Origin: an uncultured bacterium
GTDB lineage: Bacteria; Krumholzibacteriota; Krumholzibacteriia; JACNKJ01
DNA length: 64,000 bases
Assembly: GCA_963695095.1 (NCBI GenBank)
Contig: CAVOFT010000001.1
Coordinates: forward strand, 1,152,001 to 1,216,000
Reading direction: 5' to 3'
Below, piece by piece: positions 43,065 through 58,924 of this stretch (positions are counted from its first letter, which is position 1; the number at the start of each line of letters is the position of its first letter). The notes beneath the pieces were generated by a model. It ran no database searches and was not told the origin of the DNA. It saw only the letters and a program-made list of their open reading frames with translations. The translations under genes were made by a program, and so were the position numbers.

Positions 43065-45041
43065 ATGCGCATCCTGCTCGCCGCGTTCGTTCTGCTCGCC
43101 GCCGCGAGCAACCCGGCAGCCGGCCCTGCCGTGCCGGCGGACCCGCTTCTCGATCTCAAGGCGAACTTCTGCCGCGCGGGCGCCGGCCTGCTGGCGGGCC
43201 GGGCGCCGCAGGCGCGGGACTACGACTGGGACATCCTCCACGCCGAGCTGCACTTCACCCCGGACTTCGCGGCCGAGACCCTCGCCGGCAGCGTGCGCTT
43301 CGACAGCCGCGCCGAGACGGCCGGCCTGGCCACCGTCAGCCTCGACTTCGACCAGGCGATGAACCTGCTCGCCGTCCGCCAGGACGGCAGCCCCGTCGCC
43401 TGGACCCACGGCGGCGATCTCGCGGTCGTCACCCTGAGCGCCCCCTTGGCGGCTGGGCAGCTCTTCAGCCTCGAGCTGGACTTCGTCGGCTCGCCCGGCT
43501 CCACCGGCTTCGGCAGCTTCACCTGGACGGATCACGGCGGCGTGCCCCTGGTCGCCACGCTCAGCGAACCCGAGGGCGCCCGCGACTGGTGGCCCTGCAA
43601 GGACGTCCCCGACGAGAAGTTCACCGCCGATCTCTACTACCGCGTGCCCAGCGCCTACTCGGCGCCGGGGCCGGGCCTGCTCCAGTCCGTCACCGATCAC
43701 GGCGACGGCAGCAGCACCTGGCACTGGCGCGAAAGCTACCCGATCAACTCCTACCTGATCGCGCTCACGGTGACGAACTACCAGCACTACACCGATTGGT
43801 ACGTGAGCAGCAGCGGCGACTCGCTGCCCATCGAGAACTACGTCTACCCGGAGAACTACACGAACTCGGTCGAGGACCTCAGCATCACGCCGCTCGCCCT
43901 GGCCATCATGGACAGCCTCTTCGGCGAGTATCCCTTCATGGACGAGAAGTACGGCCACATGGTCTTCCACTGGGCCGGCGCCATGGAGCATCAGACCTGC
44001 ACGAGCATGGGCAACGCGGTGCTCGGCGGCGGCCACTACTACGACCGCATCGTGATGCACGAGCTGGCCCATCAGTGGTTCGGCGACGCCGTGACGCTGC
44101 AGGACTGGGAGAACGTCTGGCTGAACGAGGGCTTCGCGAGCTACTGCGAGGCAATCTGGTTCGAGTACGTGGGTGGCCAGGCCGGCCTCACCACATGGAT
44201 GACCCAGACCACCTCCGACTTCGTCGGGCCGGTGTACAACAACCCCGCCCTCTTCGGCAGCGTGGTCTACCGCAAGGGCGCCTGGGTGCTGCACATGTTG
44301 CGCTTCATGCTCGGCGACGAGACCTTCTTCGGCGCCCTGCGCTACTACTACGGCCAGCACCTCTACGGCAACGCGCATACCACGGACCTGGAGGCCGACC
44401 TCGAGGCCTACACGGGCCGGGACCTGACCGGCTTCTTCCAGCAGTGGGTCTACGGCGAGAACAGACCGGTCTACCAGTGGGCCTGGCAGGCCAGGAGCGG
44501 CACCGGCGGCTGGTGGCTGGACCTGCAGATCCGCCAGGTGCAGACCAATGCCGGCCTGTTCACGATGCCTCTGCCCTTTCGCGTGACGACGGCTCTGGGC
44601 CCGCTCGACCTGCGCGTGGACAACGACGCCTGGCATCAGAACTACAGCCTGCCCTTGGGACCCCAGGAACCGCTGGACCTCGCCTTCGACCCCGACAACT
44701 GGGTGCTGGAGTCCAGCAGCGAAGTGGCCTTCGATCCCACGGCCGCGGGAGGGGTCCCGCTAGTGGCCACGGGCCTCGCCGGCTGCTACCCGAATCCCTT
44801 CAATCCGTCCACGCGCGTGGCCTTCACGCTGGCGACGCCGGGTCCCGTGCGCCTGGAGGTCTTCGACACCGCGGGCCGCCGTCTGCGCGTGCTGGCGGAG
44901 GGGCCGCGCCCGGCGGGGCCGCAGAGCCTCGCCTTCGACGGCCTCGATGCGCACGGCGAGCCCCTGGCCAGCGGCGTCTACCTGCTGCGCCTCAGCGCCG
45001 GCGGCCGGGAGTTCAGCCAGCGCGCCGTCTTGCTCAAGTAG
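43065..45041 (+). CDS. Secreted M1 aminopeptidase with FlgD-Ig C-terminus
   Basis: GAMEH, HELAHQWFG..WLNEGFASY, YRKGAWVLHMLR; 'PNPFNP..SGVYLL'. Confidence 0.93.
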   Translation: MRILLAAFVLLAAASNPAAGPAVPADPLLDLKANFCRAGAGLLAGRAPQARDYDWDILHAELHFTPDFAAETLAGSVRFDSRAETAGLATVSLDFDQAMNLLAVRQDGSPVAWTHGGDLAVVTLSAPLAAGQLFSLELDFVGSPGSTGFGSFTWTDHGGVPLVATLSEPEGARDWWPCKDVPDEKFTADLYYRVPSAYSAPGPGLLQSVTDHGDGSSTWHWRESYPINSYLIALTVTNYQHYTDWYVSSSGDSLPIENYVYPENYTNSVEDLSITPLALAIMDSLFGEYPFMDEKYGHMVFHWAGAMEHQTCTSMGNAVLGGGHYYDRIVMHELAHQWFGDAVTLQDWENVWLNEGFASYCEAIWFEYVGGQAGLTTWMTQTTSDFVGPVYNNPALFGSVVYRKGAWVLHMLRFMLGDETFFGALRYYYGQHLYGNAHTTDLEADLEAYTGRDLTGFFQQWVYGENRPVYQWAWQARSGTGGWWLDLQIRQVQTNAGLFTMPLPFRVTTALGPLDLRVDNDAWHQNYSLPLGPQEPLDLAFDPDNWVLESSSEVAFDPTAAGGVPLVATGLAGCYPNPFNPSTRVAFTLATPGPVRLEVFDTAGRRLRVLAEGPRPAGPQSLAFDGLDAHGEPLASGVYLLRLSAGGREFSQRAVLLK

Positions 45042-45122
45042 GGGAGGGCGAACTCCGCTTCTCGGCTCGGCACGGTGTCTGCTATACTGGACACCGCTAC
45101 ACCCTGGGAGAGGAGGACCCCT

Positions 45123-47516
45123 GTGCTGCTTCGCGCCACCACCCTTGGGCGCTTCGGCGCCATTCTGTGCCTGCTGGCCCTTGCCGTCGCCACCGCAGCG
45201 GCGAGCACCGAACACCATGCCCAGCTCCGCTACTGGCTCGACACGAGCGAGGATCGCGCCTTCATCGAGCGCGAAGCGGGCCGACTGGACCTCGTCCCCA
45301 GCCGTGAGGGCGACTACGTCGACATCTTCGTTCCCAGCACCGAGCGCGAGGCCTTCATGGGTCTGGGCAGCCGCGTCGAGCTGATCCACGCCGACGTCGA
45401 GAGCTTCTACGCGGAGCGCCTGGGCGATCGCGCCGACTACGGCCTCTACCACACCTATGCCGAGTCCGTGGCCTGGATGGACAGCCTGCGCACGCTCTAC
45501 CCGCAGGTGATCAGCGCGCGCTGGGCGCTCGGCCAGGGGCACCTGGGCAACCAGATCTGGTGCGCCCGCCTCTCGGACAATCCCGATCTCGACGAGGTCG
45601 GCGAGCCCGAGGTGCTCTTCGACGGCGCGCATCACGCCCGCGAGATCATGGCCTCCGAGATGCCGATGATGCTGGCCCAGTACCTCTGCGAGCAGTACGA
45701 CGCCGGCAACCCGGAGATCGTCGATCTGCTCGATGCGAACGAGGTCTACATCGTGCCCATCGTCAACCCGGACGGCTTTCTCTACAACGAGCAGACGAAT
45801 CCCAACGGCGGCGGCATGTGGCGCAAGAACCGTCGCAACAACGGCAGCAGCTACGGCGTGGATCCGAACCGCAACTACCCCTACGAGTGGGGCTGCGACT
45901 GGGGCAGCAGCGGCGTGCCCAGCGACGAGACCTACCGCGGGCCCGCGCCGGGCAGCGAGCCCGAGGTGCAGGCGATGATGACCTTCATCAACGCCCACGA
46001 TTTCGTCGTTCGCCAGAGTCTCCACACTTACGGCGAGCTGACGCTCTACCCCTGGGGCTACACGACCGCGAATACCCCGGATGAGGATGTCTTCCGCGAG
46101 TTGGCCGCCGCGATGGTGCAGTTCAACGGCTACACGCCGGGCCAGCCGGGCGAGGTGCTCTACGACGTCTGCGGCGGCACTTTCGACTGGGACTACGGCG
46201 CCCAGGGCGAGCACGGCAAGATCTACGGCTTCACCAACGAGATGGGCAACAGCACCGACGGCTTCTGGCCGACGAATGCCCGCCGCCAGGCGCTCTTCGA
46301 CGACAACCTCTGGCCCGCGCTCTACCTGATCCAGGCGGCGGGCAGCCTGCGCGGGGTGACCTGGCAGCACAGCCCGCTCCCCTTCACGGCCGCGCCCGGC
46401 GGCGGCTACCTCACCGTCGGCGTGCCGCAGGGCTTCGCCGGCGCGGCCATCGAGCCCGGCAGCGTGACCCTGCGGTATCGGGTGAACGGCGGGGCCTTCT
46501 CGGCCATCGCGATGACGCCCACGGGCCAGCCCGGCGAGTACGGCGCCTCGATTCCGAGCCAGGCCGAGGGGAGCGCCGTCGAGTACTACCTGAGCGCGAC
46601 GGATGTGAGCGGCAACGACGGCTCGAGCCCGCGCAACGCGCCCGATGCCCTGCACTACTTCGAGGTGGGCGCGAGCTTTGCCCATGACATGGAAGCCGAT
46701 CGCGGCTGGACGGTCGGCGATGCCGCCGACGACGCCACCAGCGGCCTCTGGGTGCGCGTCGATCCCGTGGGCACGGCGGCGCAGCCGGAGGACGACCACA
46801 GCGCCGCCGGCGCCCAGTGCTGGGTGACCGGGCAGCACGTGGCCGGCCAGACCGTCGGCTACAATGACGTGGACGGCGGCGCGACAACGCTCTTCTCGCC
46901 GGTCTACGATCTGACGGGGGCCGAGTCGGTCAGCTTCAGCTACTGGCGCTGGTACTCGAACGATCAGGGCAGCAACCCGGGCGCCGACAACTGGCAGGTC
47001 TTCGTCTCCAACAACGCCGGCCAGAGCTGGGCGGCGGTGGAGAACACCACGATCTCATCCAACGCCTGGGAGAGCCACAGCTTCGATCTCGCCACCTTCT
47101 TCGCCCTGGCGGGCGAGGTGCAACTCAAGTTCGTCGCCAGCGACACGGGTAGCGGCTCGGTGGTCGAGGGCGCCGTGGACGATTTCATGATCGCCGGCGT
47201 CTTCGACACGACCGCCACGGAAGAGACTCCGGCCGGCCTGCGCCTCAGCCTGGCCCAGGCCTTCCCGAATCCCTTCAATCCGACGACGACCGTGCGCTTC
47301 ACGATCGCCAGGCCGGGCTTCGCCAGCTTGGGCATCTACGACGCACAGGGGCGCCTGCTGCGGTCGCTGCTGACCGGCGAACTGCCGGCCGGCGAGCAGG
47401 CGGTGAGCTGGAACGGGCGCGACGCCCTCGGGCGGCCGGTGGCCAGCGGCGTCTACTTCATCCGCTTGCAGAGCGGCGGCAAGGAACTGACGCGAAAGGT
47501 CGTGCTCGCCAAGTAA
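45123..47516 (+). CDS. Secreted M14 zinc carboxypeptidase (carboxypeptidase T-like) with accessory domains and FlgD-Ig C-terminus
   Basis: HHARE, VNPDG, WRKNRR, GVDPNRNY, SEPE, HTYG; 'PNPFNP..SGVYF'; GAGGAGG RBS before the GTG at 45123. Confidence 0.93.
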   Translation: MLLRATTLGRFGAILCLLALAVATAAASTEHHAQLRYWLDTSEDRAFIEREAGRLDLVPSREGDYVDIFVPSTEREAFMGLGSRVELIHADVESFYAERLGDRADYGLYHTYAESVAWMDSLRTLYPQVISARWALGQGHLGNQIWCARLSDNPDLDEVGEPEVLFDGAHHAREIMASEMPMMLAQYLCEQYDAGNPEIVDLLDANEVYIVPIVNPDGFLYNEQTNPNGGGMWRKNRRNNGSSYGVDPNRNYPYEWGCDWGSSGVPSDETYRGPAPGSEPEVQAMMTFINAHDFVVRQSLHTYGELTLYPWGYTTANTPDEDVFRELAAAMVQFNGYTPGQPGEVLYDVCGGTFDWDYGAQGEHGKIYGFTNEMGNSTDGFWPTNARRQALFDDNLWPALYLIQAAGSLRGVTWQHSPLPFTAAPGGGYLTVGVPQGFAGAAIEPGSVTLRYRVNGGAFSAIAMTPTGQPGEYGASIPSQAEGSAVEYYLSATDVSGNDGSSPRNAPDALHYFEVGASFAHDMEADRGWTVGDAADDATSGLWVRVDPVGTAAQPEDDHSAAGAQCWVTGQHVAGQTVGYNDVDGGATTLFSPVYDLTGAESVSFSYWRWYSNDQGSNPGADNWQVFVSNNAGQSWAAVENTTISSNAWESHSFDLATFFALAGEVQLKFVASDTGSGSVVEGAVDDFMIAGVFDTTATEETPAGLRLSLAQAFPNPFNPTTTVRFTIARPGFASLGIYDAQGRLLRSLLTGELPAGEQAVSWNGRDALGRPVASGVYFIRLQSGGKELTRKVVLAK

Positions 47517-48849: not shown

Positions 48850-49068
48850 GTGCACCGGTGAGGATTGGCTCTGATCCGCCGAGAAGCGGAGAAGGCCGCC
48901 ACCGGCAGGGCCGCGGTGAGCCAGCCGCCGCACTCCTTGCAGCGGCAGATCACGACCTGGGAGGGCGCCTCGTTTTGTACACGTGTACACTCCGCCACGA
49001 CTGGGGCCGCGAAGGCAGCCGGCAGCAGCTCGGTCTTCGCCTCGGCGTGTCCTCTTGCCGGACCGAGG

Positions 49069-50404
49069 TCAGCGCTCGCGCTTGGGCGGGATGGGGACGA
49101 GAGGCTGGGGGCCGCGCCCCGGCAGGGGCAGCCCGGCCCGCCGCCAGCCGGGCACGCCCTCCTGGTAGATCAGTGTGCGCAGCCAGCCCAGCCGAGCGGC
49201 CTTCGTGGCCGCGATGCGGCTGCGCACGCAATCGGCCCCGTAGCAGTAGAAGGCCAAGGAGTCGCGGGCGGGCGCCGTTCCCGGCCAATGCGCGGCGATG
49301 AGCGCGCTGAGCGAGTCGTCGACCACTTGCGCGGGCAGGGCGATGGCCCCGGGCAGATGCTCGCGCGTGAAGTCGCGGTGGCCGCGCAGGTCGAAGAGGG
49401 GCAGCCGCGGGCGGCGCCGATCGGCGAGTTCGGGATTGCCGTCGGCGAGCAGGGCGCGCATCGCCTCCGTGTCGAGGATGCGCGTCGTGGGTAGCGTCCA
49501 GTCTGCCTGCCAGGCCGCCCAGCCGCCGAGCTGCACGGCGGCCTTCACGCCGATCATCCGCAGCAGCAGATAGCCCAGGCCCGGCGCCGGGTCGGTGGCA
49601 TCCGCCCCGCAGAGCACGAAGGTGGCCTCCAGGTCCACGGTGTCCCGCTTGCGGGGGCCGAAGCTCGCCGAGGGCCTCGCGGGCGGCCTTTGGCTCCGGC
49701 CAGCCGTCGTTGGCGCCGAGCAGGGCGGGCAGGTCGATGGCCAGGGCATGGGGGATGTGCCCCGCGGGCCCGGCCCAGGCGGCTTCGCCGCGCAGGTCGA
49801 GGATCTCGCAGGTCCGGGTCTCGCCCATGCGGGCCAGGATCCAGGCCGCGTCGACGGCGAGCGCGGCGTCCGGTGTGGGGCCGGCGACCGCGGTCGCCCC
49901 CGCCGCCGGCTCGCGGCTCAACTCGCCCCCCTCGCGCAGCCAGGCCTCGATGCCGCCCGCGAGCACCCGCGGCATTCGGCAGCCCGCCCACTCCAGGGCC
50001 CAGAAGGCACGGCCGAGGGCCGGCAGGCCGAGGCCGTCCGTGTAGAGGAGCAGAGGGGTCTCGCTGTCGATGCCCTGCGCGCCTAGCCAGGCGGCGAGGG
50101 AGCCGGCCTCACCTGCGGCGAGCGCGGTGGCCAGCGGCAGCTCCAGGTCGAAGGGGCGCGCGGCTGGGAGATGGCCTCGCGCGAAGGCCTCGGCGGGGCG
50201 CAGGTCGAGCGCGAGCGGGCGCTTCCGCTCGGGCGTCCTCGCCAACTCGCGGGGGCCGATCAGGATCTCCGGGTAGACGGGCTCGCGCGGCGGGGTGCGA
50301 CCCAGCCAGGGGAAGGGGTCGCGCGGGGCCTTGGTGTCGGCCCCGGTGGGGCCGCTCAAGGCGAGCCCGGCGAGGGCCAGGGCGAGGAGGGCGAGCTGGC
50401 GCAT
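49069..50404 (-). CDS. Secreted three-domain rhodanese/sulfurtransferase-like protein, with one frameshift near 49665
   Basis: 'LDLRP..GHLP', 'LDLRG..GHIPHA', 'FDLRG..EHLPGA', 'AFYCYGADCVRS'. ORFs 48950-50404 and 49069-49749 join at ..REALG/FGPRKRD... Confidence 0.78.
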
Positions 50405-50545
50405 GGGGGCATCCTAGCCCCGGAGCGCGGCGGGGGCAAGGCGCAGGGCGCCGCTTGGCAGGCGAGCCCAAAACTGTTAGAATCATCTGGAATTGCCGCC
50501 GGGCCTGGGCTCGGGGCTGCCACCACATCCACAAAAGGACACCGA

Positions 50546-52201
50546 ATGAAGGGCTTACGCTTTGCCCTCGCCGCGGCGCTGGCGGGTCTGCCCGCCCTGA
50601 GCGGAGCGGCGCCCGAGCTCGAGTGGGCCGCGACCCACGACGGCGGCGGCCTCTACGTGGACGAGGCCCGCCTTGCCCTCACGGACCCCGCGGGCAACCT
50701 GGTGCTGGCCGGCACCAGCCACGACGGCGTGGACGGCCTGGACCTGCTGGCCATGAAGCTGGCCAAGGACACGGGCGCCGTGCTCTGGGAGCGCCGCCAG
50801 CCCTCCTTCGACACCAACGACATGGCCGTGAGCGCGCTGAGCTGGGACGGGCTCGGCGACCTGCTCCTCGTCGGCTATGTCGTCGGCTGCGTGGGTTGAG
50901 GCCACGGCGACGACATCGTCGTCCTGAAGCTGGACGGCGAGACCGGAGAGGTTCTCTGGTTACAGCACTACGCTCCCGCAGGTGATCAGCACGAAACGGC
51001 CTACGCCGTGGCCGCGGCGCCGAACGGCGATGCCTTTGTCGTGGGGCGCGCCTACACGGCCGGCCGCATGGACGACGTCATCGCCCTGCGCCTGGCTGCC
51101 GCCGACGGCCACATCCTCTGGCTGAACCGCCTCGACGGCGGCAATGCCCGCAATGACCGCGGCTACGCCTGCGTGGCGGACGCCGCCGGTGACCTCGTCA
51201 TCACCGGCATCGCGGTGAACCCGGACGAATCGGCGGACTTCCTCACCCTCAAGCTGGCCGGCGAGGACGGCCAGCTGCACTGGACGCGGCGCGAGCCCGG
51301 CGCCGTCAACAACGAGACGCCGTCGGGCTGGCTGGGCCTGGCTGCGGAGGGCGGCGACGTCTTCATGGCCAACAAGACCTGGCAGACGGGCTACTCCTTC
51401 GACGCCGTGCTCGCGCGCTACGCGGGCGCTGACGGCGCCGTGCTCTGGAGCCGGCAATACGACAACGCCGGCGCGGCGGACGACCCGCGGCAGATGATCG
51501 TCGACGGCGCGGGCTGGCCCGTGGTGGCCGGCGTCTCGGCGGGCAACATGATGACGATGCGCGTGGACCCGACCAGCGGCGATCCCCTCTGGACCCGCTT
51601 CAAGGACGGGCCCATGGGCTGGTACGACCTCGCCAACTGCCTGGGCCTGGGCCCCGAGGGGCTGATCCTCGCCGCCGGCTTCATGGACGGCGGTGCGTCC
51701 ACCTGGGACGCGGCCGTGGTTGCCTACGCACCCGATACGGGCGATGAGGCCTGGACACTGGTCTGGGACGGCGCGGACAGCCTCACCGACGAGCTGCGCG
51801 CGCTCGCGCTCGCGCCCACGGGCGAGCTCTATGCCGTGGGCTACAGCTACGCGACCTCGACGGACATGGACATGCTCGCCCTGCAGTATCGCTTCGCGCC
51901 GACGGCGGTGGACTCGCCCTGGCAGCCGGCCGCGCTCGAGGCGCGCGCCTGGCCCAATCCCTTCCGCGAATCCGTGCAGCTTCGCCTCGCCCTGCCCGCC
52001 GCGGGCAGCTATCGCGCGGAGATCTTCGATGCGCAGGGCCGCCGCGTGCGGAGCCTCGACGGCGAGGCCGCGTCCGGCGAACTGAGCCTGCTGTGGGACG
52101 GCCGGGACGCGGAGGGGCGCGCGGCTCCGGCCGGTCTCTACTTCGTGCGCATCACGAGCGGCGGCGGCGAGTGGCGGGGGCGGCTGCTGCGCCTGCGCTA
52201 G
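50546..52201 (+). CDS. Secreted beta-propeller protein with FlgD-Ig C-terminus; candidate selenoprotein (CVGU, TGA at 50897-50899)
   Basis: AAGGA RBS and signal peptide. The frame continues through TGA into GHGDDIVVLKLDGETGEVLW, the same blade repeat as 'DLLAMKLAKDTGAVLW'. SECIS-like hairpin downstream. Confidence 0.8.
50916..50940 (+). other. Candidate bacterial SECIS element
   Basis: Stem TCGTCGTCC/GGACGGCGA (9 bp, one G-U pair), loop TGAAGCT with G at loop position 2, 25 nt after the UGA. Confidence 0.55.
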
Positions 52202-52263: not shown

Positions 52264-52356
52264 TGTAGCGTGCGGCAGGAAGTGCGAGCGATCGGCAGCG
52301 GGTGTATACTCCCAAGCGTCGGGCAAGGGTGCTGCCGATGAGGGGAGGTCCTGGTG

Positions 52357-53949
52357 ATGGGCAAACGCTGCTTCGCAGCTGGGATAGTGCTTGCGATGCT
52401 GCCAAGCGGCTTTGCGAGCGGGGCAGAGGCCGCTCAGCTCCACGTCCCGCTCGAGTACCCCACGATCCAGGCAGCGGTCGATGCAGCGGCGCCGGGGGAC
52501 AGCGTCATGGTCTCACCTGGAATCTATGCCGCTCCGCCAGATTCAACACGGATCCTCCGGTGCATCGGAAAGGCCATTTACGTCATCGGCACGGCCGGTA
52601 GCGATTCCACCATCCTGTACGGGGCTGGCGGGGGAGGCCTATCCCTCATCGATGTGCCTCCTCCCGGGTTGAGCCTTCAGGGACTGACCATTGAAGAGTG
52701 CGCTGGTGGGATCTACTGCAGCGGCAGCGACCTCCTATGTTCGGAGATCCAGTGGCGCGGGAACTGCAGCGACCTTTACGCTGGCGGGCTGACGCTGATC
52801 AACTCCGTGGCTCGCATCACCGGTTCGGGTTTCGCAGACAACCGCAGCGGCTGGGATACCATTAGCGGTGGGTTTGGTGGAGCCCTCTATCTCTGGGGGG
52901 AGTCCTCCGCCTATCTCTCCGAGGTGGAGTTTTTGCGAAACGAGGCAAGCTTTGGAGGCGGTGCAATCGCCATGCTCCACGCGGATTCGCTCACCCTCGA
53001 TCGCGTGAGTTTCGAAGACAACAGCGGGCACTCCGGCGGCGCGCTGTACGTGGAAGCCAGCTCTGCCGAGGATTCGTCCAGTGTTCGGATACAGGAGTCG
53101 GTCTTCCATAGCAATTCGGCGGTGGGGGACGGCGGTGCAATCCGAGCTGCTGGCGGCCGACTGGAGCTTGAGGCTGTGGTCATCAGCGGAAACGAAGCGG
53201 GCCAGTATGGGGGCGGTATCGATTGCTCGCGGACTGCGTTGAGAATCGCCAGCTGCACGATCGCGCGCAACCAATCCACAGTGGGCGGCGCGGCCATTCA
53301 CGTCGACGACGGCGGCGAAGCGGGGAGCGTGAGCTTGGAGGTCTGCATCGTCGCCCTGAACACGGGCTCAAGCAGCCTCGAGTGGGCCGGCGACGGGGCA
53401 GCGCCCGTGCTCGCGTGCTGCGATGTCTTTGCCACGAACGGCGACCACTTCGGCGGCGCTTGGCCGGATGTCATCGGCCAGGACGGCAACTTCTCGGCGT
53501 ATCCCTACTTCTGCGGTACAGGGCCCTACGATGAGCAGAGCGGAGCGGACTTCAGCTACGAGCTTCAGACGAACTCGCCCTGCCTGCCGGGAGGCAATCC
53601 CTGCGGCATCTTGGTCGGTGCTTTCGGCGAGGGTTGTATCGCCAGCGTCGCAGGGGATTCGGATAGCGCCGACTGGCAGCCCGCCCGCGCGCTTCCGAAT
53701 CCCTTCGTGGAGACCACGCGGATTCGCGGCGCACTGCCGGGAGCGGGACCTGCGATGCTGTGCATCTACGACATCAGGGGGCGCAAGCTGCGCGAGCTGA
53801 AAGCTCTCGCGGGCGCCAACGAGTCCGCTGTCGAGTTTGCCTGGGACGGCCGCGACGGCGAGGGCCGACCCGCGCCGTGTGGCGTGTACCTGTACCGGAT
53901 TGAACGGGAAGGCCGGCGGCTCTCGGGGCGAGTCACCAGGCTGCGCTAA
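52357..53949 (+). CDS. Secreted right-handed beta-helix (Pmp-like GGAI/FxxN repeat) protein with FlgD-Ig C-terminus
   Basis: 'YPTIQAAVDAA..GDSVMVSPGIY', repeated FxxN..GGA[IL], 'SPCLPG', 'PNPF..GVYLY'. Confidence 0.85.
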   Translation: MGKRCFAAGIVLAMLPSGFASGAEAAQLHVPLEYPTIQAAVDAAAPGDSVMVSPGIYAAPPDSTRILRCIGKAIYVIGTAGSDSTILYGAGGGGLSLIDVPPPGLSLQGLTIEECAGGIYCSGSDLLCSEIQWRGNCSDLYAGGLTLINSVARITGSGFADNRSGWDTISGGFGGALYLWGESSAYLSEVEFLRNEASFGGGAIAMLHADSLTLDRVSFEDNSGHSGGALYVEASSAEDSSSVRIQESVFHSNSAVGDGGAIRAAGGRLELEAVVISGNEAGQYGGGIDCSRTALRIASCTIARNQSTVGGAAIHVDDGGEAGSVSLEVCIVALNTGSSSLEWAGDGAAPVLACCDVFATNGDHFGGAWPDVIGQDGNFSAYPYFCGTGPYDEQSGADFSYELQTNSPCLPGGNPCGILVGAFGEGCIASVAGDSDSADWQPARALPNPFVETTRIRGALPGAGPAMLCIYDIRGRKLRELKALAGANESAVEFAWDGRDGEGRPAPCGVYLYRIEREGRRLSGRVTRLR

Positions 53950-55090: not shown

Positions 55091-55301
55091 GTGCGCGTCT
55101 CCTTGGGTGAGGGGGTGAGCCGCCAGGATAGCAGTAATCCATAACAAGGTGAAGGAGATCCTCAACCCGCGCAAGGGGCTGGGGTTCCCAATCCGGACCC
55201 CTTTCCCCTCAATATTCCCGCGGCGGCTGCCGATGAAGGCTCTGGCGGGGCGTCCCTGGGCCGGGGCGCCTCCGTCCGCGCCGCAGGCGGAAAGGGGGGC
55301 C

Positions 55302-57236
55302 ATGCCCAGTCTCCACGAGGATCGCCTGGCCGACCTGCTCGGCCAGCGCCGCCTGCTCAGCGAGGCCGAGATCCGGGGCCTGCTGGAGCGCAGTGCCGGC
55401 GCGGGGCGGGATTTCGAGGCGCAGCTGCTCAGCGAGGGCGGCTTCAGCCGTCGCCAGTTGCTGGAAATCCTCGAAAATCAGTACTTCTGCCCCTCGGCGG
55501 ACCTGCCCGATGAGAGCCCGGCGCCGGCCGCCCTCCTGCTCCTGCCCCGCGCCCTCGCCGAGCGCCACGACTGCCTGCCCGTGGACCTCCGCGGGGACGC
55601 CCTGCGGGTGGCCTTTGCCGATCCCGACGACAAGCCGGCCCGGGAGGCGGTCGCCCGGGCGACCGGCCGCGAGATCCTGCCCCTCGTCGCCCTGCGCACG
55701 GAGCTGGCCCGCTGCCGCCGCGACTGGTATGCGCAGCAGGAGGCGGGCCTGGCCTCGATCCGCCCCGCGGCGCCGGCGGCCTCTGCCGCGGCCCCCGCGC
55801 CGCCTCGCATCGAGCCCATTGCCGATCTGGCCGGACGCACGCCGGCCGAGCTCGTGGCGACCCTGCTCGGGGCCGCCGCGCGCCGCGGCGCCACGGATGT
55901 GCACATCGAGCAAGGCGACGAGGCGCTGGTCCTGCGGCTGCGCCTGGACGGCATCCTGCACACGGTGGCCCGCCTGCCGCGGGAGCAGGCGGCCGGCGTG
56001 ATCTCGCGCATCAAGATCCTCGCCAGCCTGGACATCGCCGAGCACCGCCTGCCCCAGGACGGCCGTTTCAGCACGCGCGAAGGCGACCGCCTCTTCGACC
56101 TGCGCGTGAGCGTGCTGCCCGCCCAGCACGGGGAAAAGATCGTGCTGCGCCTGCTCGAGAAGAAGCTCGAGCTGCTCGACCTGGAGCGGCTCCATCTACC
56201 GCCCGCCATTCGCGAGGCCTACCAGGCCGTGCTCACGAACCCCATGGGCTTCTACCTGGTCTCGGGACCCACCGGCAGCGGCAAGACGACGACGCTCTAC
56301 GCGACCCTGCAATCGCTGGATCGCGAGGTGCTCAACATCGCCACCCTGGAAGATCCCATCGAGTACTCGCTGCCCGGCATCACCCAGACCCAGGTGCAGG
56401 AGGAGATCGGCCTCACCTTCTCCGCTGGCCTGCGCTCGCTCTTGCGGCAGGATCCGGACGTCATCCTCGTCGGCGAGATGCGCGACCTGGAGACGGTGGA
56501 GGTGGCCTGCCGCGCCGCGCTGACGGGACACAAGGTGCTCAGCACCATCCACACCAACGATGCCTGCCAGGTGATCACCCGCCTTCTGGACATGGGCACG
56601 GCGCCGCACCTGATCGCGGCCACCCTGCGCGGCGTGCTCGCCCAGCGCCTCGTGCGCCGCGTCTGCCCCCAGTGCAACGAACGCTATGCGCCGAGCGAGG
56701 CCGAACGCGCCCTGCTCGGCTATCCCGAAGTCGAGGCTCTCGTGCGCGGCCGCGGCTGTGCGCACTGCGCCGGCACCGGCTACAAGGGCCGCATGGGCAT
56801 CTACGAGTACTTCCCAGTGGAGGAGGACATCCACCGGCTCATCCTCGATCGCGCCTCGCCCTATGCCATCCGCTACGCTGCCAAGCGCGCGGGCATGCTG
56901 CTCTTGGCCGACCATGCCAAGCGCGCCGTGCTGGCCGGCGAGACGACGGTGGCCGAGATCCAGCGCGTCGTGCTGGCCGAGGCGCCCCACGAGCAGCTCT
57001 GCCCGCACTGCCAGCGCGTCGTCAACGTGGAGTTCAGCGTCTGTCCCTACTGCCAGACCACGCTCAAGGAGACCTGCGGCGGCTGCGGCCGCCCGGTGGA
57101 GGCCAACTGGGAGAGCTGCCCCGCCTGCGGCGTCCACCTGGAGCGGGAATGGGAGAAGATCTACTGCCGGCACTGCCTGGCGCCGGTGCGCCCGGACTGG
57201 GAGAGCTGCCACTTCTGCGGAGGTGCCCTGCGATGA
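55302..57236 (+). CDS. GspE/PilB-family secretion ATPase with N-terminal MshEN-like domain and C-terminal zinc ribbons
   Basis: 'ATDVHIE', 'RLPQDGRF', 'GPTGSGKTTTLY', 'TLEDPIEY', 'LRQDPDVILVGEMRD', 'STIHTND'; C-terminus with six extra CxxC pairs. Confidence 0.93.
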   Translation: MPSLHEDRLADLLGQRRLLSEAEIRGLLERSAGAGRDFEAQLLSEGGFSRRQLLEILENQYFCPSADLPDESPAPAALLLLPRALAERHDCLPVDLRGDALRVAFADPDDKPAREAVARATGREILPLVALRTELARCRRDWYAQQEAGLASIRPAAPAASAAAPAPPRIEPIADLAGRTPAELVATLLGAAARRGATDVHIEQGDEALVLRLRLDGILHTVARLPREQAAGVISRIKILASLDIAEHRLPQDGRFSTREGDRLFDLRVSVLPAQHGEKIVLRLLEKKLELLDLERLHLPPAIREAYQAVLTNPMGFYLVSGPTGSGKTTTLYATLQSLDREVLNIATLEDPIEYSLPGITQTQVQEEIGLTFSAGLRSLLRQDPDVILVGEMRDLETVEVACRAALTGHKVLSTIHTNDACQVITRLLDMGTAPHLIAATLRGVLAQRLVRRVCPQCNERYAPSEAERALLGYPEVEALVRGRGCAHCAGTGYKGRMGIYEYFPVEEDIHRLILDRASPYAIRYAAKRAGMLLLADHAKRAVLAGETTVAEIQRVVLAEAPHEQLCPHCQRVVNVEFSVCPYCQTTLKETCGGCGRPVEANWESCPACGVHLEREWEKIYCRHCLAPVRPDWESCHFCGGALR

Positions 57237-58924
57237 ACAGCGGCAAGGACCTGATGCCCACCGGCATCGCGGGACTGGACCATCTGCTCGGCGGCGGCCT
57301 CGTGCGCGGCAACAGCTTGCTCGTCGAAGGGCCGCCCGGCAGCGGCAAGACCACCGTCGCCCTGCGCACGCTCTATGCCGGCGCTCAGCAGTTCGACGAG
57401 CCGGGCCTCATCCTCACCTTCGAGGAATTCCCGCGCCAGATCTACGAGGAGGCGGCGGGCTTCGGCATGGACCTGGCGGGGCTCGAGAAGCAGGGCAAGC
57501 TGCGCGTGGTGTGGACGCCGCCGGAGCGCATCCTGCAGGGCTTCGCCGGCAAGAGCGATCTCGTCGAGAACATCGTGCGCGAGCTGGGCGTGCGGCGCCT
57601 GGTCATCGACAGCATCACGCACTTCAAGCGGGTTGCCCACTCGGAGACCGAACTGCGCGAGACCCTGGCCGAGATCCTCAACTTCCTCAAGCTGCGCGGG
57701 ATCAACGCCATGCTCGTCAAGGAACTCGAGCGCATGGACGACGCCACCATCGCCTTCGAGGAGTACCTCGTCGACGCGAGCTTGCGCGTCTACAACGCGC
57801 GCTCGGGCCACGGGGGCGACAACGAGCGCTTCCTCGAGGTGCGCAAGACGCGCGGGCAGTCGCACATCTCGGGCCTGCATCCCTTCGAGCTGGGGGAGAC
57901 GGGCGTCGTCGTCTATCCGCGCCTGCGCCCCGAGGACGTGCGGCGTTCGCCGGCGCCGCAGGCCGTTCGCCGCCGCGTGCCGCTGGGCGTGGCCGGCCTG
58001 GACGCCATGCTCGAAGGCGGCTTCTGGACGGGCTCCTTCAACCTGGCCGCCGGCTATCAGGGCACGGGCAAGACGGTGCTCGCCTACCACTTCATCGACG
58101 AGGGCCTGCGCCGCGGCGAGAGCTGCCGCTCGGTGGTCTTCAACCGCCGGCCCGAGGACCTGCTGGGCGAGGCCCGGAGTCTGGGCTTCGACTGGGATGA
58201 AGCCCTGGCTTCCGGTCGCCTCTGCGTGGATGCCTTCACGCGCGGCGGCATGAGCATGGAGAAGCTGCTGGGGGCGCTGGATGTCGCCCTGCACGCGGGG
58301 CCGCCGCAGCGCTTCGTGCTCGAGTCCCTGGACGATCTCTTCGCCCTGCCCGGCCGCGACCGCCGGGTGGCCGACGGCGTGCAGGTGCTGCGCGCCCTGC
58401 TCGCCGACGTGGGCGCCACCGCGCTCCTGCTCCACCGCGCGCAGAGCCTCGCGGGCGACCTCATGGACAATGCCCGCGAGATCGGGGAGTTCACCGACGG
58501 CATCCTGCAGTTCTCCCTGGCCGAGAACGAGGGACGGCTCTGCCGCTTCCTCAGCGTGCGCAAGCACGCGGGCAGCAATCACGCCAAGGAGCTGCGCGAG
58601 CTGGAGATCGGTCCGCGCGGCATGGAGGTGGCCGACAGCGCCGGCCGCCACCGCGGCATCCTCACCGGCCAGCTCGAGCTGGCCCCGGCGGAGGCCGCGC
58701 CCGAGGTGCTGCCGCGCATCAAGGCCGTGCGGGACATCTTCCAGGATCTGCTCGCCGCCACCGGGCTGCCCGAGGACCTGCGCCGCCGCGTGATGGCCGC
58801 GCGGCGGGAGCTGGTGCTGGCCGATGTCGTGCTGCAGGAGCACTTCGGCGGCACGCATTTCGCGCAGATGGCAGTCCGCCGCCGCGAAGAGCCGGCGCCC
58901 GAGCCCGCGGGCGGCCACCGCTAG
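57233..58924 (+). CDS. KaiC-like/RAD55 double-domain RecA-family ATPase
   Basis: 'TGIAGLDHLLGGG..GPPGSGKT..TFEE..LVIDS..VRKTRG'; second domain 'GLDAMLEGG..GYQGTGKT..VRKHAGSNH'. ATGA overlap with the PilB-like gene. Confidence 0.88.
   Translation: MNSGKDLMPTGIAGLDHLLGGGLVRGNSLLVEGPPGSGKTTVALRTLYAGAQQFDEPGLILTFEEFPRQIYEEAAGFGMDLAGLEKQGKLRVVWTPPERILQGFAGKSDLVENIVRELGVRRLVIDSITHFKRVAHSETELRETLAEILNFLKLRGINAMLVKELERMDDATIAFEEYLVDASLRVYNARSGHGGDNERFLEVRKTRGQSHISGLHPFELGETGVVVYPRLRPEDVRRSPAPQAVRRRVPLGVAGLDAMLEGGFWTGSFNLAAGYQGTGKTVLAYHFIDEGLRRGESCRSVVFNRRPEDLLGEARSLGFDWDEALASGRLCVDAFTRGGMSMEKLLGALDVALHAGPPQRFVLESLDDLFALPGRDRRVADGVQVLRALLADVGATALLLHRAQSLAGDLMDNAREIGEFTDGILQFSLAENEGRLCRFLSVRKHAGSNHAKELRELEIGPRGMEVADSAGRHRGILTGQLELAPAEAAPEVLPRIKAVRDIFQDLLAATGLPEDLRRRVMAARRELVLADVVLQEHFGGTHFAQMAVRRREEPAPEPAGGHR

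Follow-up and report, generated by a model that had tools for sequence, protein, structure and literature searches.

A probable selenocysteine codon in the gene of a predicted exported beta-propeller protein of Krumholzibacteriota, followed by two conserved tandem hairpins

We analysed a gene with a single in-frame TGA in a stretch of 64,000 nucleotides (the window) from an uncultured bacterium of the Krumholzibacteriota (assembly GCA_963695095.1, contig CAVOFT010000001.1, positions 1,152,001 to 1,216,000). As a whole, the data are best explained by one exported beta-propeller of 551 residues that contains selenocysteine (Sec) and is decoded by way of two tandem hairpins downstream of the UGA, a reading in which we have considerable confidence. 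That the UGA at 50897-50899 encodes Sec is, from sequence comparison, very likely indeed. Translation shows this TGA to be the sole interruption of the forward-strand frame that runs from the ATG at 50546 to the TAG at 52199-52201. In a mechanical open reading frame (ORF) list the gene appears as two entries of one frame, 50171..50899 and 51008..52201. The first-pass annotation of this DNA had treated the two parts as one gene split only by an in-frame TGA, and the frame and the 551-residue read-through product are as it stated. In this product, U118 stands in ...GYVVGCVGUGHGDDIVVLKLDGETGEVLW..., the wider context of residue 118 being ...LLLVGYVVG-C-VG-U-GHGDDIVVLKLDGETGEVLW.

The main evidence is the conservation of the codon. 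A search of 41 related genomes with the read-through protein yielded 16 full-length matches in 15 genomes (37-80% identity), each with exactly one in-frame TGA. These orthologues align over their full length at 35-81% identity, and all 16 TGAs share one column in a MAFFT alignment. On the scale of the phylum (208 genomes), a match at E <= 1e-40 was found in 68 genomes. Exactly one in-frame TGA was present in 69 of the 70 listed matches (E <= 5.6e-86, identity down to 33%, two taxonomic families), and the seventieth (2e-47, 32% identity) is a distant paralogue. The protein family occurs in 10 of the 11 genomes of one taxonomic family (f1) plus the source genome and in 57 of the 91 genomes of another (f2); with this query it was found in none of the 105 genomes of the other seven taxonomic families in the phylum. 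Another 18 orthologues were extracted, all of which read GC(x)xG-U-[G/S]HGDD. When 34 genes were aligned at the nucleotide level, the TGA always fell in one column, within the motif GC(x)xGU[GDS][HQ]GDD. The first-pass annotation had let its selenoprotein claim depend on what homologues carry at this column; the answer is exactly one TGA in 69/69 strong matches and a single column in 34/34 aligned genes.

Residues on both sides of the UGA are invariant, namely W27, W81, D101, G114 and C115 before it and G121, D122, D123, K128 and W138 after it; at residue 120, 14 of the 16 aligned proteins have His and two have Gln. Besides D101, the acidic residues E150, D204, D361, D388, D415/E416 and D442 are invariant as well. 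Two TGA-free relatives (28-32% identity) and one 27%-identical database protein are without the entire Cys/Sec loop of 5-6 residues. To judge from this comparison, the loop is an insertion that is absent from the distant TGA-free paralogues. At the nucleotide level, contigs of relatives from four metagenome runs of four studies were compared with the gene; these runs are among 24 sequencing runs found, none of which contains more than 7% of the sampled words or is recorded as RNA. Among the differences listed there was none at 50897-50899, while the synonymous site 50896 varies. For several of these contigs the match to the gene is restricted to a stretch that begins at about 50883-50897 and ends at 50960-50973. 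This stretch reaches from the UGA to the end of the second hairpin, which makes 50883-50973 the most conserved nucleotide segment of the gene.

These data also bear on three simpler explanations. A sequencing or assembly error in this genome has hardly any probability left, since the same codon is found in 68 independently assembled genomes and none of the differences listed for the metagenome contigs falls on it while the neighbouring position varies. A global reassignment of TGA was rejected: among the 15 complete orthologues, 7 terminate at a genuine TGA, so that TGA keeps its stop meaning in these organisms and the site at residue 118 is a local exception. The third explanation is that the TGA is a genuine stop, so that the gene would be either a pseudogene or a 117-residue secreted peptide followed by a separately started propeller. 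This is how gene callers treat it, and the public protein sets hold only C-terminal pieces of 346-431 residues. We consider it very improbable nonetheless. Frame and TGA are kept in 69/69 homologues down to 33% identity, and the most conserved peptide of the protein (GHGDD...TGEVLW) follows directly after the TGA without a start codon. The called starts differ among the orthologues (profile positions 127-178), and the C-terminal part would have a sorting domain without a signal peptide. In the orthologues, the hydrophobic leader is found only 5' of the TGA, and no part but the C-terminus carries the sorting domain, so both halves are needed as one chain. An AGGA/GGAG-like word, a start codon and a hydrophobic leader, the last recognised by eye as comparable to the one here, lie 114-120 codons 5' of the TGA in 16/16 orthologues.

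The genome (3.64 Mb, 2 contigs) has the machinery for Sec insertion. The tRNA-Sec scores 71.9 bits with the Rfam model (cut-off 47) and is given the anticodon tca by ARAGORN; selA scores 430 bits, selB 337 bits (362 with a C-terminal piece) and selD 342 bits, and the last has an in-frame TGA of its own in the classic ...GGU-S-A-K context. All four exceed the curated cut-offs, so that selA, selB, selC and selD, the absence of which would have spoken against the first-pass annotation, are present. Phyletic co-occurrence with the Sec machinery turned out to be an uninformative test and was set aside: selA is found in 41/41 related genomes, with or without the propeller family, which is consistent with Sec insertion and does not discriminate. 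A relaxed genome-wide screen for selenoproteins gave 37 candidate sites, most of which are probably not selenoproteins. Five other selenoprotein genes were identified in the genome, i.e. the Sec-type selD, a peroxiredoxin with a PxxxTxxU motif (FTFVUPTE; AhpC-TSA, E 1e-36), a Rdx/SelW-like protein with CxxU (E 4e-18), a DUF1573 protein (context GGUACS) and an exported protein with a UPAC motif and without a Pfam match. Each of these five genes has a single hairpin of 6-8 bp, the loop of which reads GGA or GGUC(U) and begins 17-21 nt 3' of the UGA.

In the propeller gene, two hairpins follow the UGA. Hairpin 1, which the first-pass annotation had described as a 9-bp hairpin at 50916-50940 with G at loop position 2, folds as described: the distance from the UGA to the loop is 25 nt, the stability is -14.7 kcal/mol, and none of 200 dinucleotide shuffles was as stable. 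Hairpin 2, which the first-pass annotation did not mention, directly abuts it; in this genome it has 9 bp, a GGU loop 50 nt after the UGA and a stability of -10.8 kcal/mol, again not reached in 200 shuffles. The structure was tested on a gap-free alignment of 34 orthologues that covers 87 nt around the TGA. With both hairpins, 93.4% of the 578 cells are paired and compensatory change is seen in 6 of the 17 pairs. In 500 column shuffles these values were never attained, and sliding the 3' partners by 1-3 columns lowers the pairing to 35-60%. RNAalifold predicts the same two helices from 16 sequences. A scan of 50700-51200 against Rfam at E <= 10 returned no SECIS family; its seven matches are at chance level, all far below the gathering scores.

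The two hairpins are conserved in different ways. In hairpin 1, 87.6% of the cells are paired, compensatory changes occur in 4 of the 9 pairs, and loop position 2 is G in 26/34 and C in 8/34 sequences. In hairpin 2, 100% of the cells are paired, compensatory change occurs in two pairs, and all 34 sequences have GGT in the loop. The codons in this region are frozen at synonymous positions: Val136 is GTT in 15/16 genes (a codon used for only 59 of the 720 Val residues in these genes), Leu137 is CTC in 16/16, Thr133 is ACC in 15/15, and Gly134 is GGA or GGG in 16/16 and never GGC, the codon found at most of the other conserved Gly columns. Third positions vary freely in the 16 nt that link the UGA to hairpin 1.

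A selenoprotein would often be expected to have relatives with Cys in place of Sec, and the first-pass annotation had suggested a look at homologues for TGA or Cys at this column. A word-indexed search of 5.8 billion protein clusters with a 460-residue query region returned 24 proteins. The 18 closest (42-90% identity) are fragments of 346-426 residues that begin after the TGA and cover at most 70% of the query region; the other six are long pyrroloquinoline quinone (PQQ)-like proteins with at most 29% identity. One fragment is labelled as coming from Candidatus Krumholzibacteriota, which hints at the lineage. A profile search of 1.84 billion representatives listed 150 matches, of which 13 are single-stretch fragments (376-431 residues) that start at profile positions 127-178, and the rest are long multi-propeller proteins. 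The pattern C-x(2,3)-C-[GD]-[HQ]-GDD is absent from all 173 database proteins that were fetched. A search with residues 98-142 carrying Cys for Sec gave 16 word-sharing candidates, none at E <= 10. The public protein sets searched contain only headless fragments of the protein, without the signal peptide and the most conserved motif. It is possible that distant Cys forms lie below the top 150 of the profile search.

Several findings weigh against the selenoprotein interpretation or parts of it. The expected Cys homologues were found neither in the protein clusters nor among the best 150 profile matches, in the 208 phylum genomes or in the search with the motif region. Neither hairpin fits the published consensus of the bacterial Sec insertion sequence (bSECIS) across the family. 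According to the available text of a recent review, this consensus asks for a loop of 3-9 nt, a stem of 4-16 bp, a G in the first two loop positions, a distance of 16-37 nt from the UGA and a minimum free energy of -7.5 kcal/mol or lower (PMC13188914). In 7 of the 34 orthologues, hairpin 1 has no G at loop position 1 or 2. Hairpin 2 departs from the consensus in its spacing only, with its loop 50 nt away from the UGA where the model has 16-37 nt. Furthermore, no operon partner is conserved across f1 and f2, so that any functional guess is without contextual support. A scan of 50700-51200 against Rfam at E <= 10 returned no SECIS family; its seven matches are at chance level, all far below the gathering scores.

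The question of which hairpin is recognised by SelB can be approached from these data. The first-pass annotation had proposed hairpin 1 as the SECIS element. Its distance and stem agree with this role; it is probably not the element that binds SelB, given the C in 8/34 loops and the invariant GGU of hairpin 2. We lean slightly towards hairpin 2 as the SelB-binding site within a tandem-hairpin mechanism, because its GGU loop is invariant, its synonymous sites are frozen and its loop is of the type used in the other selenoprotein genes of the genome. The competing explanation is that the UGA does encode Sec and hairpin 1 alone is the SECIS, while hairpin 2 is kept for some other reason, for instance because it pauses the ribosome, stabilises the mRNA or binds a second protein. 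As far as this genome is concerned, hairpin 1 does agree with the bSECIS consensus on every item (7-nt loop, 9-bp stem, G at position 2, 25 nt, -14.7 kcal/mol), its stem has compensatory changes in 4 of 9 pairs, and its distance is normal where that of hairpin 2 is not. Against it stand the variable loop, with C at position 2 in 8/34 and no G at position 1 or 2 in 7/34, and the A that follows the G, where G or U is usual. In the five other selenoprotein genes the loops are GG(A/U), like that of hairpin 2, and the synonymous freeze lies on hairpin 2 as well. On balance we find this explanation unlikely, yet by no means negligible.

If hairpin 2 is the recognised element, a tandem RNA element within the reading frame would recruit SelB with Sec-tRNA(Sec), and SelB would bind the GGU loop of hairpin 2. 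Hairpin 1 would serve as a conserved folded spacer that brings hairpin 2 near the ribosome in spite of the 50 nt of sequence. As the two ends of hairpin 1 lie side by side, hairpin 2 would begin, in space, about 17 nt from the UGA. Compared with bacterial genes of the SelB/SECIS type, for which E. coli fdhF is the archetype, the in-frame UGA, a downstream hairpin with G-G/U in the apical loop and selA/B/C/D are shared. The differences are that two conserved hairpins stand in tandem here, that the canonical GGU loop is 50 nt away and not 16-37, that the hairpin at the canonical distance has no conserved loop G, and that no Cys homologues were found.

With the hairpins in view, one may also ask whether the UGA is read through without Sec, by near-cognate insertion of Trp, Cys or another residue, with the hairpins as stimulus and a full-length non-selenoprotein as product. 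Read-through of stop codons can be stimulated by RNA structures downstream, the searches brought up no Cys form that would indicate a need for a chalcogen, and the distance of the GGU loop is atypical. However, the Sec machinery is complete here and selA is present in 41/41 relatives, the codon sits in a CxxU arrangement, and the loop of hairpin 2 is of the type found in the bona fide selenoprotein genes of this genome. In addition, if any residue sufficed at this site, a sense codon would be expected somewhere among the 69 genes. Such read-through is therefore improbable, and Sec remains the preferred assignment.

The read-through protein would be of a secreted type, as proposed in the first-pass annotation. 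A Pfam scan at E <= 0.01 found only the C-terminal FlgD_ig domain that had been claimed there (PF13860, residues 484-539, E 5.6e-11). In NCBIfam release 20, the sole model above its cut-off was TIGR04183, the type A sorting domain of the type IX secretion system (T9SS; 29 bits, cut-off 23). Of the T9SS machinery, the genome encodes the translocon SprA (532 bits summed, cut-off 200) and the sortase PorU (438 bits, cut-off 420). A search of this genome with the read-through protein brought up 148 other matches, nearly all to the sorting-domain end, which suggests a very large set of T9SS cargo. With a putative signal peptide, a predicted propeller and a T9SS sorting domain, the protein would be exported to the cell surface or the medium; an extracellular location is what these sequence features point to.

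An AlphaFold2 (AF2) model was built on the 16-sequence alignment and reached a mean predicted local distance difference test (pLDDT) of 84.6 and a predicted template modelling (TM) score of 0.75. The model is all-beta, with 33 strands over residues 24-449; residues 2-18 form a lone helix of low confidence, and after the propeller come a linker of low confidence (452-464) and an Ig-like sandwich. The best Foldseek match was CylK (1.6e-15); BamB and tetrathionate hydrolase, both at about 1e-9 to 1e-11, and YxaL came next, and these propellers matched with 15-19% identity, probability 1.0 and TM 0.44-0.52 over about 440-480 columns. Eight repeats about 54 residues apart carry conserved Trp residues at 27, 81, 138, 192, 246, ~301, 349 and 403, so that eight blades are counted from the repeats. 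The predicted fold is an eight-bladed PQQ/BamB-like beta-propeller with four-stranded blades. This beta-propeller had been anticipated in the first-pass annotation, and the all-beta model, the Foldseek matches, the leader and the sorting domain are in line with it. That annotation had also placed Sec118 on a loop between blades. In the model the CxxU loop does lie between two propeller strands (105-112 and 123-130), for which an inter-blade position is one possibility. The local pLDDT is lower there (68), as expected for an exposed loop. In the model the CxxU site is without a thioredoxin fold, the motif being carried by a loop between strands of an all-beta propeller.

The predicted fold is common to the PQQ-like and BamB-type eight-bladed propellers and CylK (PDB 7fh7, 3prw). 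The identity to those proteins is only 15-19%, and none of them is a selenoprotein or has a CxxU loop. Close homologues of our protein carry a precomputed PF13360 label; PF13360 was not reported for the protein itself in the Pfam scan at E <= 0.01. The D-x-x-T-G-x-x-x-W repeat of the propeller resembles the PQQ tryptophan-docking motif.

As regards function, Sec118 and the invariant Cys115 are three residues apart on the glycine-rich loop G-C-x-G-U-G/D-H/Q-G-D-D, and CxxU is listed for many redox selenoproteins in the available text of the review (PMC13188914). The C115-U118 pair could form a reversible selenenylsulfide, and the protein could be an extracellular thiol/disulfide or sulfur-compound oxidoreductase. 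Judged from the motif, we put a redox role forward as a tentative proposal, with somewhat less than an even chance of being right. The main and serious alternative is a metal site formed by Cys, Sec, His/Gln and Asp, because a His/Gln and two invariant Asp are adjacent. An exported protein has no NADPH-linked reductase at hand, and the habitats of this lineage are anoxic and sulfidic; that small thiols or sulfide recycle the selenenylsulfide is speculation. The most far-reaching version of our interpretation is an obligate-selenium enzyme on a T9SS-secreted propeller with a bipartite SECIS, in which the spacer hairpin lets the GGU hairpin act from 50 nt. We offer it as a working idea that is a little more likely to fail than to hold.

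A comparison may be drawn with mammalian thioredoxin reductase, which has a C-terminal Gly-Cys-Sec-Gly redox centre. In both cases a Cys and a Sec are near each other on a flexible segment flanked by glycine, and a selenenylsulfide is possible in principle. The reductase has CU and a flavin domain, whereas the protein described here has CxxU on an internal propeller loop, lacks a flavin domain and is predicted to be exported.

The family is in all likelihood uncatalogued in print. The review of the prokaryotic selenoproteome from 2026 tabulates 119 families, and there is no propeller, PQQ-like, FlgD or T9SS family among them (PMC13188914, Table 1). Neither the available text of this review nor that of the deep-Sep paper contains the words 'propeller', 'T9SS', 'FlgD' or 'PQQ'. 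The first-pass annotation had not recognised a known selenoprotein family here, and the family is indeed absent from both the 119-family table and NCBIfam release 20. Searches of full-text literature brought up nothing relevant on selenoproteins with a propeller or PQQ-like fold, with T9SS export or from Krumholzibacteriota, although supplementary tables of surveys could hold unnamed candidates; co-mentions of selenocysteine and T9SS in the available texts were judged incidental, each term occurring once. One catalogued counterpart, as far as the available text describes it, is a membrane-barrel envelope selenoprotein. It is likewise extracytoplasmic and all-beta, with a predicted Sec in CxxU; it is a barrel and has reported Cys homologues, whereas the protein described here would be a soluble propeller, and it had no match to the NCBIfam model of the barrel protein at E <= 0.01.

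New selenoprotein families are reported regularly. What is unusual here is the combination of a propeller with T9SS export, the lack of any Cys form in our searches and the displaced SECIS loop. If confirmed, this would be a selenoprotein on a beta-propeller scaffold, a fold absent from the 119 families in the available 2026 table. It would also be a selenoprotein exported by the type IX system, and one of the rare families without a cysteine counterpart, from which it may be argued that its chemistry cannot do without selenium. Its tandem-hairpin SECIS would be missed or mis-assigned by current SECIS-based predictors, which assume a spacing of 16-37 nt, and the gene offers a clean test system for the maximum distance between a UGA and the hairpin that binds SelB. 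Selenoproteins are hard to annotate, as this gene illustrates with the headless fragments that alone represent it in the public sets searched.

A second exported propeller gene with one in-frame TGA was found in the same genome (G000:C1:2602302-2603540, minus strand). It encodes a signal peptide, FG-GAP repeats (PF13517, E 1.7e-21) and a FlgD_ig sorting domain, and its TGA lies in ...NYPGG-U-CLGL. Among its 19 matches in the 41 relatives, 11 have one TGA and 8 have none. Two of the TGA-free homologues have Gly at the TGA column and keep the adjacent Cys, and in one orthologue the TGA has moved by one residue onto the column of this Cys. Both genes combine a signal peptide, a repeat propeller, a T9SS sorting domain and a conserved TGA. 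They differ in repeats and motif, and the FG-GAP family has TGA-free members (8/19) while the family described here has none. If the interpretation is true for both, the two genes would represent an unrecognised class of surface-exposed propeller selenoproteins, whose selenium-based redox or metal chemistry would take place outside the cell, in anoxic habitats.

Table 1. Features of the propeller gene (window positions) and positions of the other selenoprotein genes in the genome
Feature	Position	Strand	Remarks
Whole gene of the probable selenoprotein	50546..52201	+	551 codons including UGA118, plus TAG stop
Shine-Dalgarno-like AAGGA	50535..50539	+	6 nt before ATG; read from the sequence
Putative N-terminal signal peptide, ~residues 1-21	50546..50608	+	By eye: basic N-terminus, hydrophobic core, small residues before the mature end
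Predicted beta-propeller, ~residues 24-449	50615..51892	+	AF2 model, Foldseek, conserved Trp
Cys115 codon TGC, CxxU partner of Sec118	50888..50890	+	Invariant in 16/16 aligned and 18 further orthologues
UGA very probably read as selenocysteine 118	50897..50899	+	Same column in 34/34 aligned genes
Hairpin 1 (candidate SECIS of the first-pass annotation; here a putative structured spacer)	50916..50940	+	9 bp, loop UGAAGCU
Hairpin 2, probable SelB-binding element	50941..50961	+	8-9 bp, GGU apical loop at 50950-52
C-terminal Ig-like sorting domain (FlgD_ig / T9SS type A), ~residues 467-551	51944..52198	+	PF13860, TIGR04183
Five other selenoprotein genes	G000:C1 ~70080; 2731343; 2768022; 1064804; 2963424	-; -; -; +; +	

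The neighbourhood of the propeller gene was inspected as well. Just upstream (43065-47516, plus strand) lie genes for two secreted peptidases, an M1 aminopeptidase-like protein (658 aa) and an M14 carboxypeptidase (813 aa), each ending in a FlgD_ig sorting domain. An M14 gene with more than 57% identity is found near the propeller gene in 5 loci, all in f1, and two more f1 loci have partial M14 matches (about 41% identity over half of the query). Since this synteny is confined to f1, the peptidases were rejected as a functional clue. Divergent to the propeller gene is a 484-aa ORF (48950-50404, minus strand) with a rhodanese domain at residues 52-157 (E 3.6e-12). Rhodanese selenoproteins exist; this ORF has no in-frame TGA, and with a counterpart in only one other locus it was rejected as a clue too. 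In 11 of 22 f2 loci, the propeller gene is divergently adjoined by a small gene for a tetrahaem cytochrome c554-like protein with four CxxCH (e.g. L072:3375-3962, plus strand), with a cytochrome b561 gene beyond it in 9 f2 loci. The corresponding pair in this genome (G000:C1:3480022-3481075) is 2.3 Mb from the propeller gene, for which reason the cytochrome was likewise rejected. Immediately downstream of the propeller gene (52354-53949, plus strand) is a T9SS-type cargo protein with a right-handed beta-helix, polymorphic-membrane-protein repeats and a weak FlgD_ig match. Further on (55149-58924, plus strand) there is a T2SSE/PilB-like ATPase of 695 aa, which carries an MshEN domain and, at its C-terminus, a double zinc ribbon; next comes an ORF for a KaiC-like ATPase. 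The mechanical start of the latter overlaps the PilB-like gene by about 560 nt, and its true start is probably later.

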